Positions 3,502 through 35,383 of a DNA stretch of 64,000 nt are shown piece by piece (the first letter of the stretch is position 1; every line of letters begins with the position of its first letter). The position numbers and the translations under genes are program-made. Source of the DNA: Vogesella amnigena (GTDB lineage Bacteria > Pseudomonadota > Gammaproteobacteria > Burkholderiales > Chromobacteriaceae); the NCBI RefSeq assembly GCF_042648905.1, contig NZ_JBHRYH010000021.1:107657-171656 (forward strand). Direction: 5' to 3'. Below the pieces are notes generated by a model. It was not told the DNA's origin. It worked only from the letters and a program-made list of their open reading frames with translations, and ran no database searches.

Positions 3502-4635
3502 TTACAGGGTATCCTTCAGCGCGCGCGCCTGCTCCAGCGCGTCGTCCACGCCGGCCGCCAGCACGCAGTAGTGGCCCATCTTGCGGCCAACCCGTGCCTG
3601 CTTCTTGCCGTACAGGTGCAGCTGGGTGTTCGGCGCTTCCATCAGCACCGACCAGTTCGGCTCGCCGCCGTCCTCGCCCCAGACATCGCCCAGCAGGTTC
3701 ACCATCACGATGGGCGACAGCAGATCAGTCTTCCCCGGCAGCAGGCCGCACATGGCGCGTACCTGTTGCTGGTACTGATCGGTGGCACAGGCGTCGATGG
3801 TGTAGTGGCCGGAGTTGTGCGGACGCGGTGCGATCTCGTTCACCACCAGGCTGTCGTCGCCCAGCACGAAGAACTCCACCGCCAGCACGCCTACGTAGTC
3901 CAGCGCCTCGGCCAGCTGCATCGCGTACTGCTGCGCGCGTGCGGCCAACTCCGGAGCAATGCGCGCCGGCACGATGGACTCGTCGAGGATGCCATCCTTG
4001 TGGATGTTCTCGGCCACCGGGAACACCGCTACCTGGGCAGTGCTGACGCGGGTAACAATGGCGGACACTTCCAGCTTCAGGTCCAGCATCTTTTCCAGCA
4101 CGCAGGCCTGGCCGCCCAGGCTGGCGAAAGCCTCGCGTGCCTCGTCGGCGGTTTTCACCCGCACCTGGCCCTTGCCGTCGTAGCCCAGCCGCGCGGTCTT
4201 GAGGATGCCCGGCAGGTAGTCGGCCAGATCGCCGGCCAGGTCGGCGGCCTGTTCCAGCGCCAGGTAGGGCGCAGTCGGCAGCCCGGCCTTGCGCACCCAG
4301 CTTTTCTCGGCGATACGATCCTGGGCGATGGCCACGCAATCGCCGGACGGCGACACGCGAGTGGTCTTGGCCAGCTGCCGCATGGCGTCGGCGTTGACGT
4401 TTTCGAATTCGGTGGTAACCGCGGCGCAGCTGTCGGCCAGGGTCTTCAGCGCGGCGGCGTCATCGAACGGCGCGCACAGGTGCACATCGGCGAATTCGGC
4501 TGCCGGAGCGTTGGCATCCGGGTCCAGCACGGTGACACGGTAGCCCATGCGCTTGGCGGCGGTAACGAACATGCGGCCCAGCTGGCCACCGCCGAGGATG
4601 CCCAGCATCGCGGGCGGCAGGATGGCGCGCATCAT
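3502..4635 (-). CDS. purK: N5-carboxyaminoimidazole ribonucleotide synthase
   Basis: ATP-grasp PurK signature ([12 protein letters not shown]). The start ATGA overlaps the purE stop. Confidence 0.9.
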
Positions 4636-29218: not shown

Positions 29219-30805
29219 TCAGCTGCCTTTCACTGCTGACCAGTCCAGCCCGAAACGCGCCAGGTACTTGCGCAGCCGGTCGGCATCATTGGCCTGGCTG
29301 CGGGCCTGACGCGATACCGCGAACAGCTTGCGGCCAGCCTCCGACAGACTGGCCGACTCGCGGCAGACGGTGACCACCGCCTCCAGCTGCACCCGCTCGA
29401 ACAGGTCCAGCTCCGCCGCTTGCGGCAACAACCCGGCCAGCAGGCTCGGGCGCTCGCCCGCTGCCAGCGCCCAGTTGCGCCGCAGCCTGCCAATTTCCTC
29501 CGCCACCTCGTGCTGGCCGATATTGCCACCCTCGGCCAGGGTCGCCATGCGTGTCACCGATGCGGACAGCTCGCGGAAATTGCCGCGCCACTGCGCATCC
29601 GGCGAGCAGGCAAACGCCAGGTAGTCCTCTCGCGCCTCGCGTGCGAAACGCACCCGCTCGCCACTTTCCCTGGCATGGCGCAGCAGCTCGAACTCCAGGT
29701 TGGGCGCGATGTCTTCCGGCCGTTCCACCAGCCCCGGCAGATCGAAACTCCACAGGTTGATGCGCGCGTACAGGTCTTCGCGGAAACGGCCCTCGGCCAC
29801 CCACTGCCGCAGATCGCGCACCGTGCCGCACACCAGCTGGAAGCTGCTGGTCACTTCGCGATCGCCACCAAACGGAAAGAAGCGCTTTTCCTCGATGGCC
29901 TTGAGCAGCATGGCCTGCTCATCCGCACCCAGTTCACCGATTTCATCAAGAAACAGCAGCCCGCCATCGGCACTCTTGAGCAGGCCGTCACGCGCATTCA
30001 GCGCGCCGGTGAAGGCGCCTTTGACGTGGCCGAACAGCGCCGACATGGCACTGTCGCCACGCAGCGTTGCGCAGTTCACCTCAACAAAGCGCCCGGCAAG
30101 CTGGTGCCGGGCTTTCTTCAGCTCGTATAGCCGCCGCGCCAGGAAGCTCTTGCCGGCCCCTGTCGGCCCGCACAGCAGCATCGGCGCGGTGGAGCGGGTG
30201 GCGACCCGCTCGATCTCGCCGATCATGCGGTTGAAGGCTGGATTGCGGGTGGCGATGCCGGACTTGAGCAGCGCCAGCGTGTCGTCACGCTGGCGAGCGA
30301 AACGCTGGGCAATCTGGTCGTAGCGCGACAGATCCAGGTCGATCACCTTCACCGTACCGGCGTAGTGGCTATCGCGATGGCCAATGGCGCTTTGCAGCAG
30401 CCGGGCCGGGATATGCCGCGACTCGGCCAGCAGAAACCAGCAGATCTGCGCCACGTGGGTACCGGTGGTGATGTGCAGCAGGTAGTCCTCGTTCTCGCTA
30501 TCGAAAGGGTATGCCGCGGCGTAGTCGTGCAGCGTGGAATAGACCTCCTCGAAGTCCCAGGGGTCGCGCAGATTGCACGGCGACAGCACCACCTCGGTCT
30601 GCGGCGACACGCTGGCGATATCGGCAGCCGTCAGTTTTGCCAGGTTCAGGCTGTGGTTGTCGTGCAGCAGGTGCAGCCGGTCGACGGGCAATTGCGGCTG
30701 TCGGCAGATGCCTACCGTTGGCCGCCACTTCTGCCAGCGCGCCTCACCGTAACCGCCCTTGTCCAGCACTGTGCCGAGAAAGCCGATGACTACCGTTTTA
30801 CGCAT
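29219..30805 (-). CDS. rtcR: sigma54-dependent transcriptional activator RtcR (N-terminal CARF domain + AAA+ sigma54-interaction domain + HTH)
   Basis: MRKTVVIGFLGTVLDKG CARF N-terminus. GPTGAGKS Walker A. GAFTGA, ESELFGH-like and arginine-finger motifs. C-terminal HTH. Confidence 0.9.
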   Translation of the reverse strand: MRKTVVIGFLGTVLDKGGYGEARWQKWRPTVGICRQPQLPVDRLHLLHDNHSLNLAKLTAADIASVSPQTEVVLSPCNLRDPWDFEEVYSTLHDYAAAYPFDSENEDYLLHITTGTHVAQICWFLLAESRHIPARLLQSAIGHRDSHYAGTVKVIDLDLSRYDQIAQRFARQRDDTLALLKSGIATRNPAFNRMIGEIERVATRSTAPMLLCGPTGAGKSFLARRLYELKKARHQLAGRFVEVNCATLRGDSAMSALFGHVKGAFTGALNARDGLLKSADGGLLFLDEIGELGADEQAMLLKAIEEKRFFPFGGDREVTSSFQLVCGTVRDLRQWVAEGRFREDLYARINLWSFDLPGLVERPEDIAPNLEFELLRHARESGERVRFAREAREDYLAFACSPDAQWRGNFRELSASVTRMATLAEGGNIGQHEVAEEIGRLRRNWALAAGERPSLLAGLLPQAAELDLFERVQLEAVVTVCRESASLSEAGRKLFAVSRQARSQANDADRLRKYLARFGLDWSAVKGS

Positions 30806-30958
30806 CGCTTCATATCCACATGGCTAATTTTACTAGCCAAATTTATCAGAAATTTACATGACATGGCACGTAGTCAGTCAGTGCCGCATTACCAGCGGAA
30901 ATTTTTTCTTCTTTCAAAACAACAATCTGCAGGAAATTCAAGCCATGCCCAGTGCAGC

Positions 30959-30974
30959 TGGCACGGCTTTGGCA
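30959..30974 (+). promoter_or_regulatory. sigma54 (-24/-12) promoter candidate TGGCAC-GGCTT-TGGCA, divergent from rtcR
   Basis: GG and GC separated by the canonical 10 nt. Single deviation from TGGCAC-N5-TTGCA. Located 154 bp from the rtcR start, oriented toward the ncRNA / SPFH / rtcB genes. Confidence 0.55.
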
Positions 30975-31096
30975 ATGGTAACGGCACTGTCGCAAGCAGC
31001 ACGGTGCCTGCGGGAGGCGGCTCCAGTCCGCCCCGGTGCCCGGTGCCAGGCCCGCCTGTCGTGGCCGGGTATGCCGCCCGTGATGTGGACAGTGTT

Positions 31097-31146
31097 GGCG
31101 ATGGCAGGGATGCGTCATCCGGGTTCGACTCCCGGCATCGCCACCA
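31097..31146 (+). ncRNA. tRNA-like minihelix: 7-bp acceptor stem (GGCGATG/CATCGCC) + small hairpin + canonical T-arm (CCGGG-TTCGACT-CCCGG) + encoded 3' ACCA
   Basis: Sequence ggcgatggcagggatgcgtcatccgggttcgactcccggcatcgccacca. Lacks D and anticodon arms. Resembles the acceptor/T-arm mimic of YrlA-type Y RNAs. Confidence 0.5.
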
Positions 31147-31219
31147 ATCGGTAGCTCATTCTGGATAGAGCAACAGCCTCGCAAGCTGTGTGTAGCGGGT
31201 TCGAATCCCGTCCGAACGT
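31145..31219 (+). ncRNA. tRNA-like element with D-arm (GCTC...GAGC), anticodon arm (ACAGC-CUCGCAA-GCUGU; anticodon CGC with U33/A37), variable loop, T-arm (GCGGG-TTCGAAT-CCCGT); acceptor stem only 5/7 paired and no CCA (likely pseudo-tRNA / tRNA mimic)
   Basis: caatcgg ta gctc attctggata gagc a acagc ctcgcaa gctgt gtgta gcggg ttcgaat cccgt ccgaacg t. Abuts the CCA of the preceding minihelix. Confidence 0.4.
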
Positions 31220-31430
31220 CACTGTTGAGACGCTATTGATATTGCAGCAACCGAACCGGTGCGGCCCATGGCCGCCACGCCGGCAGCCGGCAAACGGCGC
31301 ATGCATGCGGCAGCGACAAGGCAGCCCCCGACCGCAGTCTGGTACGGGAGGCCACCCGCCTCGCCCCCGCCGGCACCCGCCGCCCGCCCGCCGCTGGCGT
31401 GCCCCCGGTTCACCACGAAAGGACAAGAAC

Positions 31431-32570
31431 ATGCTGTGGAAAAAACTGCTGGTAAAAAAACACGAGCGCGGCCTGCTGCTGCGCGACGGCGACTTCGAGC
31501 GCATCCTGCCGCCCGGCCGTCACTACCTGTTCGACCCGCTGCGGCAGCTGCAGCTGGAAACGGTTACCCTGAGCCAGCCGCGCTTTACCCATGCGCTGGC
31601 CGACTACCTGCGCCAGCACGCAGCGGAGGTGGTGGACGAGCACTTCCACCGTGTCGAACTGGGAGATGACGAAGCGGCCCTGCGCTTCGAGGGCGAGCAG
31701 CTGGTGGAGATTCTGCCGCCCGGCCACAACGCGCTGTACTGGCGCGCAGCCGGTACGCTACGGCTGGAGCGCATCCAGCTGCGCGACACCCGCGAGCTGC
31801 CGGCCGGTCTGCTGTCCCGCCTGACACAGACGATACTGCGCGGCCGCGCCATTGCCGGCCTGGCCGGGGTGCTGAATGTGCAGGTCCCCGCCGGCCACGT
31901 AGGCGTGCTGCGCTGCGAGGGCGAAGCGCTCACCCTGCTGCAACCGGGGCGCTACGGCTACTGGCGCTTCAACCGCGATATCGCGGTGGAGCTGGTGGAT
32001 ACCCGCCTGCAGGCACTGGAAGTCAGCGGCCAGGAAATCCTGACCCGCGACAAGGTCAGCCTGCGCCTGAACCTGACCGCCAACTGGCAGTACAGCGATG
32101 TGGGCCAGGCCTTCAGCCTGCTGCCCAAGCCGGCCGAGCACCTGTACCGCGAGCTGCAACTGTTGCTGCGCGCCGCCGTAGGCACCCGCACGCTGGACGA
32201 GCTGCTGGAGAACAAGCAGCTGCTGGACCGGGAACTGCTGGAGCGCGCCGGCGAACGCCTGGCCGGCTGCGGCCTCGCCCTGCAGGCGCTGGGGGTGAAG
32301 GACATCATCCTGCCGGGAGAAATGAAGGCGCTGCTGTCGCAGGTAGTGGAGGCAGAAAAGGCCGCACAGGCCAACGTGATTCGCCGCCGCGAGGAAACCG
32401 GCGCCACCCGCTCGCTGCTGAACACAGCCCGGGTAATGGAAGACAACCCCACCGCGCTGCGGCTCAAGGAGCTGGAAACGCTGGAGCGGCTGGCCGAGCG
32501 CATCGACAAGATCTCGGTGATCGGCGGCCTCGATCAGCTGCTGAACGGGCTGGTGAAGATCGGCCGCTGA
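31431..32570 (+). CDS. SPFH/band-7 (stomatin/prohibitin/flotillin-like) domain protein, 380 aa
   Basis: QEILTRDKVSLRLNLTANWQY ... TLDELLENKQLLDRELLE ... LGVKDIILPGEMK ... EAEKAAQANVIRRREETGA ... NPTALRLKELETLE matches SPFH core and C-terminal coiled-coil patterns. ATG preceded by GAAAGGA. Confidence 0.7.
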   Translation: MLWKKLLVKKHERGLLLRDGDFERILPPGRHYLFDPLRQLQLETVTLSQPRFTHALADYLRQHAAEVVDEHFHRVELGDDEAALRFEGEQLVEILPPGHNALYWRAAGTLRLERIQLRDTRELPAGLLSRLTQTILRGRAIAGLAGVLNVQVPAGHVGVLRCEGEALTLLQPGRYGYWRFNRDIAVELVDTRLQALEVSGQEILTRDKVSLRLNLTANWQYSDVGQAFSLLPKPAEHLYRELQLLLRAAVGTRTLDELLENKQLLDRELLERAGERLAGCGLALQALGVKDIILPGEMKALLSQVVEAEKAAQANVIRRREETGATRSLLNTARVMEDNPTALRLKELETLERLAERIDKISVIGGLDQLLNGLVKIGR

Positions 32571-32577
32571 ACACCAG

Positions 32578-32603
32578 CCTGCGGCCAACGTTGGCCGCAG
32601 GCC
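32578..32603. repeat. REP-like palindrome CCTGCGGCCAACGTTGGCCGCAGG between the SPFH gene and rtcB
   Basis: Perfect 10-bp arms. Confidence 0.7.
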
Positions 32604-32626
32604 GACACAACAGAAAGACAATAACC

Positions 32627-33844
<1,218 letters not shown>

Positions 33845-33890: not shown

Positions 33891-34700
33891 ATGTTTCACT
33901 TCCCCTATGCTCACCCGTTGCCGGATACCGTGCGGCAGCGGGTGGATGCCGAACTGTCTGCGCTGGAAACCCGCTACCGCGTGCGGGTACTGTTTGCCTG
34001 CGAATCCGGCAGCCGGGCGTGGGGCTTTGCCTCGCCGGACAGCGACTACGACGTGCGCTTCCTCTATGTGCACGAACCAGAATGGTATCTACGGGTGCAA
34101 GCGCAGCGCGATGTCATCGAACTGCCGATCAGCGACGAGCTGGACATCAGTGGCTGGGAGCTGCGCAAGGCGCTGCGCCTGCTGGCCGCCGGCAACCCCA
34201 CCCTGTTCGAGTGGCTGCAGTCGCCACTGCTGTACCGTGCCGAGCCGCAATTCGTCGCCGAGCTGCTGGCGCTGGCCGCTCACTGCCACTCGCCGCTGAA
34301 AAGCCGCTGGCACTACCTGTCGATGGCGCGCAAGAACTTCCGCGGCTACCTGCAGGGGGATATGGTGCGCTGGAAAAAGTACCTGTACGTGCTGCGCCCG
34401 CTGCTGGCCGCCGCCTGGCTGGATGCCGGGCGCGGCATGGTGCCGATGCGCTTTGCCGACCTGGCCAGCGCCATGGTGCACGAGCCAGCACTGGCAGCTG
34501 CCATCACCGAGCTGCTGCAACGCAAGATGCAGGCCGGCGAAGCCGCCGTCGGGCCGGCCATGCCACAGGTGGATGCCTTCATCCGCAAGGCGTTGGCGCA
34601 ATATGATGCGGCTCCGCCACTACCCGCGCCCACCGGCACCGACGGGCTGGATGCGCTGCTGTACCGGCAGGTGCTGGGCATTACCAGCAGCCTGGCTTGA
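33891..34700 (+). CDS. pol-beta-superfamily nucleotidyltransferase (GS-x10-DxD motif) with C-terminal helical domain; RtcB-associated
   Basis: RVLFACESGSRAWGFASPDSDYDVRFLYV minimal NTase motif. 269 aa. Immediately downstream of rtcB. Confidence 0.65.
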   Translation: MFHFPYAHPLPDTVRQRVDAELSALETRYRVRVLFACESGSRAWGFASPDSDYDVRFLYVHEPEWYLRVQAQRDVIELPISDELDISGWELRKALRLLAAGNPTLFEWLQSPLLYRAEPQFVAELLALAAHCHSPLKSRWHYLSMARKNFRGYLQGDMVRWKKYLYVLRPLLAAAWLDAGRGMVPMRFADLASAMVHEPALAAAITELLQRKMQAGEAAVGPAMPQVDAFIRKALAQYDAAPPLPAPTGTDGLDALLYRQVLGITSSLA

Positions 34701-34747
34701 CCCTCAAGCCGCATCCCGCTCGGCAAACGCTTCCTTGGCAGCCGGCC

Positions 34748-35242
34748 TCACGGCAACAGCAGCGGCAGGGGCGTGCTGTCACCAAGCTTGCCGTACAGCG
34801 GCGAGCCGGCATCGGTTTCATCCTGCAGCAGCGCCTGTTGCCGGGCATTGGGCCGCCCCAGCCATTGCACGCTGCCGTCGTCACGGGTGTAACGCGCCAC
34901 CAGCTGCATGCGCTTGGGCGCATACAGCACCAGCAGCTGGTGCGGACAGTTGTGCGGCTCACACACCCAGCCGCGCAGGTAGTCCTCGCGGCCGGCCTTC
35001 AGCGGAATCAGCGGTGTGCTGACGCCATTGCCCACCCAAGAGGGCGCCTTGCCGCCGCTACCGCGAAACACCGCCTGCACCGCGTTGCGAAAGCCACGAT
35101 CCGCCGCGTAGACATCGCCAAAGTAGGCGCACTGCGCCTGCTGCTTGCACTGCAAGGCCTGCATGGCAGTACGCTTGTCTGCAGCCTGGGCGCTGCCAGC
35201 CGCCAGCAGCACGCTCAGTGCCGCAATCCAGTAGTTACGCAT
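34748..35242 (-). CDS. ivy: periplasmic lysozyme inhibitor of Ivy family
   Basis: Signal peptide. CEPHNCPHQ corresponds to the Ivy CKPHDC inhibitory loop. About 160 aa. Confidence 0.55.
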   Translation of the reverse strand: MRNYWIAALSVLLAAGSAQAADKRTAMQALQCKQQAQCAYFGDVYAADRGFRNAVQAVFRGSGGKAPSWVGNGVSTPLIPLKAGREDYLRGWVCEPHNCPHQLLVLYAPKRMQLVARYTRDDGSVQWLGRPNARQQALLQDETDAGSPLYGKLGDSTPLPLLLP

Positions 35243-35383
35243 AAGCGCCCCTTGTCTATGTCATGCCTGCATCATGCCACGCGGTTCGCCAGCTGCCCAT
35301 GATGACGCTCCGGTTGGCAGCCACCACCCGGCTGCCGCACAATCCGCGCATTCCGCCTTGCGGCCAACCTTTGCGCCTATCCG

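Follow-up and report, generated by a model that had tools for sequence, protein, structure and literature searches.

A tandem of tRNA-like modules upstream of the Band-7–RtcB–RlaP operon of Vogesella amnigena, a probable copy of the b7a-tRNA

Introduction

RtcB operons are widespread. Here, we describe a tandem of two tRNA-like modules at positions 31097-31219 of a 64,000-nucleotide (nt) stretch of the Vogesella amnigena genome (contig NZ_JBHRYH010000021.1, positions 107,657 to 171,656 of the forward strand; the whole stretch is hereafter called the window). Two of its closest described counterparts are noncoding RNAs (ncRNAs) of RtcB operons. YrlA, a non-decoding tRNA mimic in RtcB operons controlled by RtcR and sigma-54, has T-arm, D-arm, and acceptor-like elements in a circularly permuted tRNA-like domain that sits on a Ro-binding stem. 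Its partner is Ro60/Rsr, and it has been proposed as a cofactor of RNA repair or decay. In Salmonella, tRNA fragments with a terminal 2',3'-cyclic phosphate activate RtcR, and the nuclease responsible leaves YrlA uncut. Burroughs & Aravind reportedly proposed SPFH/Band-7 and Ro proteins as scaffolds in 2016, with "a novel tRNA-like molecule" and Y RNAs, respectively, as the cognate ncRNAs. The band-7-associated tRNA-like RNA (b7a-tRNA) was predicted by the same authors (Nucleic Acids Res 2016), according to the summary in a citing preprint (bioRxiv 10.1101/312249), which describes it as strongly resembling authentic tRNA and as thought to be functionally redundant with YrlA. A literature search for later work on b7a-tRNA found no mention beyond this preprint. 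A preprint on RlaP of Pseudomonas (bioRxiv 10.64898/2025.12.29.696909) reports that this enzyme extends RNA 3'-OH ends by one or two nucleotides and that the 5' half is its preferred substrate in a nicked tRNA mimic; the tandem RNA is unmentioned there.

By sequence comparison, 31097-31219 is very probably the V. amnigena copy of b7a-tRNA. Like the latter, it immediately precedes the Band-7/SPFH gene of an RtcB operon and forms a cloverleaf with strongly conserved D and T arms, and as far as the secondary description of b7a-tRNA allows a comparison, the two do not differ in principle.

Results and discussion

A conserved tandem of tRNA-like modules

Related loci were found in one-genome-per-species contigs via an alignment of 20 Band-7 homologues, yielding 80 loci, mostly from Burkholderiales, Rhodocyclales, Neisseriales, and Pseudomonas. 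In 66 of these, which span beta- and gammaproteobacteria, a T-loop search detected two GGTTCGAnTC motifs 68-83 nt apart (76 nt in the window) at the same place. The 14 loci without the tandem include two that are truncated, about eight with one module or one degenerate module, and two with none. In most of the 80 loci, ARAGORN called a tRNA-like gene at a distance of 250-400 nt from Band-7 on its upstream side, with every kind of anticodon, many of them impossible, and with two overlapping calls in Pseudomonas. Single-sequence folding recovers a minihelix and a cloverleaf with energies that are insignificant for their composition (z = -1.85 and -0.71). Thermodynamic stability was therefore discarded as evidence, and the case rests on the comparative data.

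Module 2, the downstream element, has all four arms of a tRNA: a D-arm (GCTC/GAGC), an anticodon stem (ACAGC/GCTGT) with the loop CTCGCAA, a 5-nt variable loop (GTGTA), and a T-arm (GCGGG-TTCGAAT-CCCGT), as well as the canonical U8, A14, G18G19, and T-loop TTCGAAT. Its acceptor stem is paired at five of seven positions, with A2·C71 and A3·A70 mismatched, and has no CCA. The Rfam tRNA model matches the element with 47.1 bits, above its gathering score of 29 (E = 6e-7 for the 64-kb window), and flags pairs 2:71 and 3:70 as non-standard. No other Rfam family attains its gathering score within the window, and the only tRNA call of ARAGORN in the window, a tRNA-Ala(cgc) at 31145-31220, is made here as well. 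A canonical tRNA-Ala was nevertheless rejected, as the element fails on the 7-bp acceptor, the G3:U70 pair, and the encoded CCA, and its anticodon is not conserved among orthologues. A covariance model built from 63 other loci with the window excluded (R1) aligned to 31148-31223 with 73.4 bits (E ~2e-22). Across loci, R1 gives 65-93 bits for orthologous module 2 sequences, including six loci outside the seed, 55-69 bits for module 1 of Pseudomonas, and 23-62 bits for the genuine tRNAs of nearby arrays. The window score falls into the first of these ranges and exceeds the last.

When 67 sequences were aligned with MAFFT, module 2 showed an invariant D stem and little or no variation at the elbow nucleotides (U8, A14, G18G19, T54-A58) and in the rest of the T-loop. 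Pairing amounts to 99.4% in the anticodon stem, each of whose five pairs shows compensatory changes, and to 99.7% in the T stem. Over the whole module, 90% of the cells are paired vs. 32-44% when the partners are slid by 1-3 columns; double-sided changes occur in 214 cells, and none of 500 shuffles reaches the observed covariation score. Within the acceptor, conservation and covariation extend over pairs 4:69 to 7:66, and of 65 sequences only 15 form pair 1:72, 26 form pair 2:71, and 33 form pair 3:70. Judged from these alignments, the short 5/7 acceptor is a trait of the family and not a sign of decay. Since only the inner four to five acceptor pairs are conserved, the paired core of module 2 starts at T31148 (core 31148-31215), and its apparent overlap with the CCA of module 1 arises because a 7-bp tRNA model is forced onto it. 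The anticodon loop varies in sequence and length (4 to at least 7 nt) and is often a UUCG or GNRA tetraloop in Pseudomonas. Orthologous copies are accordingly read as Ile, Thr, Met, Arg, Leu, Glu, Phe, Cys, or Val, or with 'anticodons' of 2-4 nt within the tetraloops. On this comparative evidence, the anticodon CGC with its U33 and A37 carries no meaning, and the module is non-decoding.

Module 1 combines a 7-bp acceptor stem (GGCGATG, 31097-31103, with CATCGCC, 31136-31142), a mini D-arm (GCA-GGGA-TGC, 31104-31113) followed by a 5-nt connector, a T-arm (CCGGG-TTCGACT-CCCGG, 31119-31135), and the tail ACCA (31143-31146), and has no anticodon arm. A second covariance model (R2), with a small, equal-length seed from eight other loci and again excluding the window, matches 31097-31146 over its full length (45.9 bits, E ~7e-13), all 15 pairs being standard. 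Because the variable middle of the module caused MAFFT to leave the 5' strands of the acceptor out of register, acceptor pairing was assessed from the T-loop as anchor, with 3' strands swapped between loci as controls. All seven pairs form in 42% and at least six in 97% of the 67 tandems, compared to 4.4% and 44% in the controls. With 51 distinct 3' strands, the acceptor sequence differs at almost every locus, and the tenfold excess of complete pairing over the swapped controls indicates that its strands covary. The 3-bp stem and NGGN loop of the mini D-arm also recur and covary in relatives (GCA/TGC, CTC/GAG, TTC/GAA, GTC/GAC), and this arm, to judge from its sequence, keeps the GG needed for docking on the T-loop.

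The form of module 1 differs among lineages. In the window and about 50 other loci, it consists of a 7-bp acceptor, a middle region of 12-24 nt, the T-arm, and the tail; where it is shortest, the middle consists of a hairpin of 3 bp, looped by NGGN, plus a 5-nt connector. It is a full cloverleaf in 15 Pseudomonas-type loci (L029, also flagged by a simple GCTCA filter, actually has a module 1 of the mini type), and in Comamonadaceae-type loci a 4-bp GNRA-capped hairpin replaces the anticodon arm. An (N)CCA follows the acceptor in 31 of the 67 tandems. The distance from the end of this acceptor to the D stem of module 2 is 9-13 nt in most betaproteobacteria, comprising NCCA, a 5-nt acceptor strand, and UA, and 7-8 nt in Pseudomonas, where the acceptor helices abut and there is no CCA. 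The modules thus form a fused unit, and the CCA end is not universal in the family.

The features listed in a preliminary description of this stretch, which was based on its sequence, are all present at the coordinates given there. This applies to the acceptor, T-arm, ACCA, and missing anticodon arm of the first element, and to the arms, loop CUCGCAA, 5-nt variable loop, 5/7 acceptor, and absent CCA of the second, on which the suggested check with a tRNA covariance model was also positive. Three points have to be revised. The first element does have a D-arm, whose pairs covary in relatives; the second does not start inside the CCA of the first; and the anticodon with U33 and A37 carries no meaning, since relatives have any triplet or 4-nt tetraloops. 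The encoded CCA of the first element is present in the window, but is found at the expected place in fewer than half of the tandems.

The preliminary description also raised the possibility of a degraded tRNA-Ala pseudogene. Such a decaying, functionless tRNA-Ala(CGC) gene beside a chance minihelix would account for the ARAGORN and Rfam tRNA calls, the two acceptor mismatches, the missing CCA, and the ordinary folding energies. It does not account for the recurrence of the same two modules at the same position in 66 of 80 loci from two proteobacterial classes, for compensatory changes in the stems and invariant nucleotides at sites of tertiary interaction, or for a short acceptor that is common to the whole family while the anticodon differs from locus to locus. 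The strong conservation and compensatory changes at orthologous loci, the absence of which the preliminary description had named as evidence against its proposal, leave this explanation with a negligible probability.

A scan of viral contigs for a T-arm closely followed by a D-arm gave 37 matches, none with a Band-7 gene and one with an RtcB homologue on the locus; these are probably tightly packed phage tRNA arrays.

Comparison with other tRNA-like RNAs

The tandem shares with YrlA its operon type, its non-decoding character, and the T-arm, D-arm, and acceptor-like elements. In contrast to YrlA, it consists of two unpermuted modules, has no Ro gene in the operon, and lacks a supported closing stem. 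In a permissive Rfam search of 30600-31500, YrlA (RF02553) was rejected with 21.3 bits against a gathering score of 69, the match extending across the T-arm of module 1 and the D-arm of module 2. Ro/TROVE is absent from the operon genes (Band-7, RtcB, RlaP), to which the TROVE screen was limited. An enclosing Y-RNA-like stem, 31087-31094 with 31220-31227, was rejected as well. It is absent from the RNAalifold consensus and, across the family, no better than swapped controls, the longest helix between the flanks averaging 5.7 bp compared to 5.5 bp in the controls.

Other tRNA-like RNAs resemble module 1 in architecture. The tRNA-like domain (TLD) of tmRNA and the mascRNA/menRNA, of which mascRNA is a vertebrate RNA excised from MALAT1, likewise have an acceptor stem, a T-arm, a vestigial D element, and a CCA end, and no functional anticodon arm. 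The best sub-threshold Rfam match to module 1 is mascRNA-menRNA (RF01684), with 33.2 bits vs. 42.5 on 31097-31142. A permuted tmRNA was rejected, as the tmRNA_permuted model reaches 16.9 bits vs. 47, ARAGORN calls no tmRNA, and there is neither a tag reading frame nor a G3:U70 pair. Compared to the TLD, module 1 lacks G3:U70, which alanyl-tRNA synthetase requires, the mRNA-like tag, and an SmpB context, and the resemblance is architectural only.

Together, these comparisons make it very unlikely that the tandem is a YrlA-type RNA bound by Ro (Rsr), a chargeable tRNA, or a tmRNA-like minihelix. The weak YrlA match and a module 1 that has the parts list of the tmRNA TLD, including its ACCA end, speak for this group of explanations. 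On the other side, the YrlA score falls far below the gathering score, the operon has no Ro/TROVE gene, no enclosing stem exceeds chance, and covariation supports each module closing on itself; in addition, pair 3:70 of module 1 is C3:G70 instead of G3:U70, with no tag frame and no tmRNA call. The YrlA link drawn in the preliminary description hence does not stand, whereas its wider proposal of tRNA mimics tied to an rtc RNA-repair locus agrees with the neighboring genes for RtcR, Band-7, RtcB, and the nucleotidyltransferase RlaP; the elements are not coding tRNAs.

The vault particle offers a further comparison, as it combines a small structured ncRNA with a cage-forming protein that has an SPFH/Band-7 domain (the major vault protein, with its SPFH-like shoulder). 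Vault RNAs are not tRNA-like, however, and the likeness of the Band-7 protein in the window is one of predicted fold.

Genomic context

The tandem lies in a 625-nt gap between rtcR and the divergent Band-7–RtcB–RlaP operon, on the Band-7 strand and directly upstream of Band-7, with the RtcB ligase gene next in the operon; the 80 related loci are arranged likewise. The order in the window is RtcR, a sigma-54-type promoter, the tandem RNA, Band-7, RtcB, and RlaP (Table 1).

Table 1. Coordinates (window numbering) of the tandem RNA, its flanking structures, and the neighboring genes.
Feature	Position	Strand	Basis
rtcR, sigma-54-dependent activator with RtcR/CARF N-terminal domain	29219..30805	-	Pfam RtcR 8e-82, Sigma54_activat 8e-47
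Sigma-54-type promoter TGGCACGGCTTTGGCA, GG-N10-GC spacing	30959..30974	+	1 mismatch to TGGCAC-N5-TTGCW
Leader hairpin P-a (GG..CGG / CCG..CC)	31013..31034	+	RNAalifold consensus, 67 sequences
Leader helix P-b, 31035-31050 with 31056-31075	31035..31077	+	RNAalifold, 67 sequences, 14 pairs
Module 1, mini tRNA-like element	31097..31146	+	Model R2 and acceptor pairing vs. swapped controls
Module 2, four-armed tRNA-like element with short acceptor	31145..31219	+	Rfam tRNA, ARAGORN, model R1
Small hairpin CGUC / GACG, 8-nt loop ACUGUUGA	31217..31232	+	Minimum free energy fold
Trailer domain, 31254-31313 joined to 31363-31410	31254..31410	+	RNAalifold, 23 RtcR-type loci
Band-7/SPFH (slipin-family) protein	31431..32570	+	Pfam Band_7 8e-24, residues 151-322
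RtcB RNA ligase	32591..33844	+	Pfam RtcB 4e-127
RlaP, Pol-beta-family nucleotidyltransferase	33891..34700	+	Pfam RlaP (PF10127) 1e-92

RtcR of the window scores 823 bits against the NCBIfam RtcR equivalog (cut-off 650), and a divergent RtcR is found at the equivalent position in 53 of the 80 related loci. From the position of the sigma-54-type promoter, transcription would start at about 30985-30987. The count of sigma-54 patterns in the window is by itself not above chance; at an equivalent distance, 157-190 nt upstream of the first T-loop, TGGCACG-N4-TCGCW occurs in most RtcR-containing loci.

Variability of the upstream region is found in about 22 of the 80 loci, in which RtcR was not detected within 4 kb upstream and which mostly lack a sigma-54-type site there (L003, L005, L007, L009, L013, L016, L017, L018, L021, L025, L028, L035, L037, L038, L040, L047, L048, L059, L060, L064, L067, and L072). 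In most of them, 2-10 canonical tRNA genes form a same-strand array that precedes Band-7 by ~0.9-2.5 kb, with anticodons including those for Glu, Asp, Phe, Arg, Pro, His, Leu, Lys, Gln, Asn, Trp, Ser, Gly, and Met. The order at these loci is tRNA array, conserved leader, tRNA-like module(s), Band-7, and RtcB, as if an RNA-repair operon had been joined to the 3' side of the array.

The Band-7 protein of the window is 100% identical to a V. amnigena protein. Its AlphaFold model (predicted local distance difference test score, pLDDT, 82.7) has two N-terminal beta-rich repeats that make up the ~150 residues preceding the SPFH domain, and a long C-terminal helix; no N-terminal helix is predicted in this model. 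These predicted features fit a soluble oligomeric platform. In a Foldseek search, the model matched the cage-forming SPFH proteins stomatin, HflK/C, and prohibitin, and the longest spans were matches to chains of the major vault protein (418-473 columns, TM-score normalised to the query 0.40-0.44). A bacterial vault-like assembly is thus a possibility raised by the model.

Band-7 and RtcB are separated by only 20 nt in the window, which therefore has no room for an additional mini tRNA-like element observed between these genes elsewhere (L028:5387-5429, L056:5313-5365, L078:5331-5396). This element lies within a conserved stretch of ~270 nt, has a T-arm and a ...CCACCA end, and resembles the tRNA-like domain of tmRNA without the mRNA part (tmRNA model in L078, 25.5 bits vs. 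47). Other loci have a conserved small open reading frame (ORF) in the same gap (L001:5180-5540, L019:5200-5590, L043:5190-5620), which the window lacks. Its translation from the DNA contains Cys-x-x-Cys motifs and ...QVWTAxQQQWWYE... as a conserved segment, and a zinc-ribbon-like protein is suggested by these features. At the other end of the operon, a 201-codon ORF (34697-35302) was rejected as a fourth gene. It overlaps the rlaP stop codon, has no Pfam or NCBIfam match and no homologue in the 80 loci, and its translation is rich in Arg, Ala, Leu, and Gln, as is typical of a wrong frame in GC-rich DNA. The ORF is thus probably spurious, with an antisense-like composition.

Conserved helices around the modules

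The two modules are flanked by further conserved structures and are thereby embedded in a structured, conserved leader of ~430 nt that belongs to the Band-7–RtcB–RlaP operon. Between the promoter and module 1, the pairs of leader hairpin P-a are retained in nearly all of the 67 sequences, with compensatory GC-to-AU changes. The adjacent helix P-b shows double-sided changes in up to 35 sequences at one pair, its GGUGC/GCAUGCC is almost invariant, and a near-invariant ATGCCGC is found in its region (31071-31077). Both helices persist where the modules are lost. A natural case is seen in Pseudomonas donghuensis and P. aegrilactucae (L011 and L015, ~3560-3850), which keep RtcR, the sigma-54 promoter, the ATGCCGC leader, and the trailer motif, with unrelated sequence in place of both modules; these module-less variants lend themselves to comparison.

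Directly 3' of module 2, nearly all relatives have a hairpin. Its loop is a tetraloop, in some cases GNRA, in 23 of the 67 sequences, and in 20 it resembles an anticodon stem-loop, with a stem of 4-6 bp and a 7-nt loop of the form C-U-NNN-A-(C/A); the anticodon-like triplets include GUU, UUC, GUC, and GGU. In the window, the hairpin loop could instead pair with 31088-31094. A pairing of GGACAG(UG) just upstream of module 1 (31087-31094) with the 5' strand of the hairpin (31220-31227) would compete with the hairpin, and it can also form in relatives from Burkholderia and Ralstonia (L020, L029, L045, L049, L058, L065). It is a possible structural switch, without family-wide support.

The trailer domain of ~160 nt closes ~20 nt before the start codon of Band-7. 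RNAalifold assigns it 35 pairs in 23 RtcR-type loci; compensatory changes occur at 28 of these, and the window has standard pairs at 31. This domain could be a cis-regulatory fold or a part of one large RNA. Neither the tandem nor its flanking helices are represented by a family of their own in Rfam 15.

Possible functions of the tandem RNA

As the best overall explanation, and one we regard as reasonably probable, we propose a b7a-tRNA tandem that acts as the RNA cofactor or scaffold of Band-7–RtcB–RlaP repair. The mechanism taken separately, a cofactor or scaffold role in a repair complex, is offered tentatively as the most likely role. Damage to tRNAs would lead RtcR to switch the operon on, and the RNA would fold into two L-shaped tRNA mimics that are unusable in translation. 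As RNA cofactor or scaffold, the mimics may offer a handle to RtcB and RlaP, enzymes that recognise the tRNA shape, on a putatively cage-forming Band-7 protein, and host tRNA-processing enzymes may also be docked via them. Such an arrangement would parallel Y RNA, which tethers Ro to an effector, and vault RNA, which accompanies the major vault protein. The substrate preference of RlaP, the response of Salmonella RtcR to damaged tRNAs, and the likeness of the Band-7 model to cage-forming SPFH proteins and the major vault protein speak for this proposal. Module 1 lacks an anticodon arm but has a complete acceptor, in many cases with CCA, and module 2 is a full L-shape with a truncated acceptor; speculatively, this division of labour suggests that the modules dock different tRNA-recognising enzymes.

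Several observations weigh against this proposal. As described in the citing preprint (bioRxiv 10.1101/312249), b7a-tRNA is a comparative-genomics prediction that is experimentally unvalidated, and since our match is to that paper's description, the 2016 definition may not cover both modules. In addition, no intrinsic terminator between the RNA and Band-7 and no sigma-70-like promoter were found in 30500-31700, so that the operon transcript made under RtcR control would most simply begin with this RNA. The modules are flanked by the conserved helices of leader and trailer, which reach almost to the ribosome-binding site, and a cis-acting leader accounts for this as readily as a released RNA does. 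Finally, the two Pseudomonas loci that keep leader and trailer have no recognisable tRNA-like module, and together with the roughly eight single-module loci they show that the modules are dispensable in some lineages.

These points lead to the main rival explanation, in which there is no released RNA with a function of its own. Modules, leader, and trailer helices would instead form a device in the 5' untranslated region for processing, stability, or translation of the Band-7–RtcB–RlaP mRNA. In one variant, cleavage by RNase P or RNase E at the modules leaves a structured, protected 5' end; in another, the fold gates the ribosome-binding site. Besides the missing terminator and sigma-70 promoter, such a leader is supported by long-range trailer helices that stop just short of the start codon, and by P-a and P-b being at least as conserved as the modules and outlasting them. 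In the ~22 loci with the leader behind a genuine same-strand tRNA array, moreover, the region sits in transcripts that tRNA-processing enzymes would have to cut. What this explanation does not predict is the conservation of elbow nucleotides and of a full 7-bp acceptor with NCCA, which exceeds the needs of a cleavage signal, or that of two differently specialised modules across two proteobacterial classes, and the analogous YrlA of Ro-type rtc operons is a stable trans-acting RNA. We therefore regard an exclusively cis-acting leader as possible but not likely. It is compatible with a released cofactor, and the two are not mutually exclusive.

Alternatively, the tRNA mimics may be decoys or sensors that absorb nucleases attacking the anticodon or the acceptor end, or that yield fragments with 2',3'-cyclic phosphates feeding back on the CARF domain of RtcR. 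The activation of Salmonella RtcR by such fragments is in line with this idea, as are the many relatives that have a 7-nt module 2 loop with U33- and A37-like nucleotides and the additional hairpin resembling an anticodon stem-loop. However, the loop of module 2 is variable and, in Pseudomonas, a stable tetraloop, which is hard to reconcile with sequence-specific anticodon nucleases, and module 1 has no anticodon arm to be cut. Furthermore, the RNA is made only once RtcR is active and thus cannot be the primary sensor, and the Salmonella nuclease does not cut YrlA. A decoy or sensor function consequently appears improbable.

A more far-reaching version of the cofactor proposal treats the modules as the core of a single structured RNA of ~430 nt, in the order P-a, P-b with ATGCCGC, module 1, module 2, the anticodon-stem-loop-like hairpin, and the ~160-nt trailer. 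This RNA would assemble with Band-7 into a vault-like ribonucleoprotein for tRNA repair, in which the modules have distinct roles; for example, module 1 would dock acceptor-end enzymes and module 2 anticodon-end enzymes. We consider this version unlikely in its entirety.

Conclusions

The detection of the tandem in V. amnigena adds a member to an RNA family that is already known but goes unannotated and has no Rfam entry. Being conserved, tRNA-shaped, and encoded along with Band-7, RtcB, and RlaP, this RNA is an obvious candidate for a cofactor of these proteins. Its anatomy yields defined constructs for experiments, namely an acceptor/CCA-end module and a full L-shaped module, both non-decoding and located within a larger conserved fold, to which natural variants without one or both modules can be added. 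Both the ~430-nt fold and the tandem design may extend the published b7a-tRNA, and if the modules are the core of one such RNA and the flanking domains and the two-module design are indeed undescribed, the family would represent a new large class of bacterial RNA and not a lone tRNA mimic.

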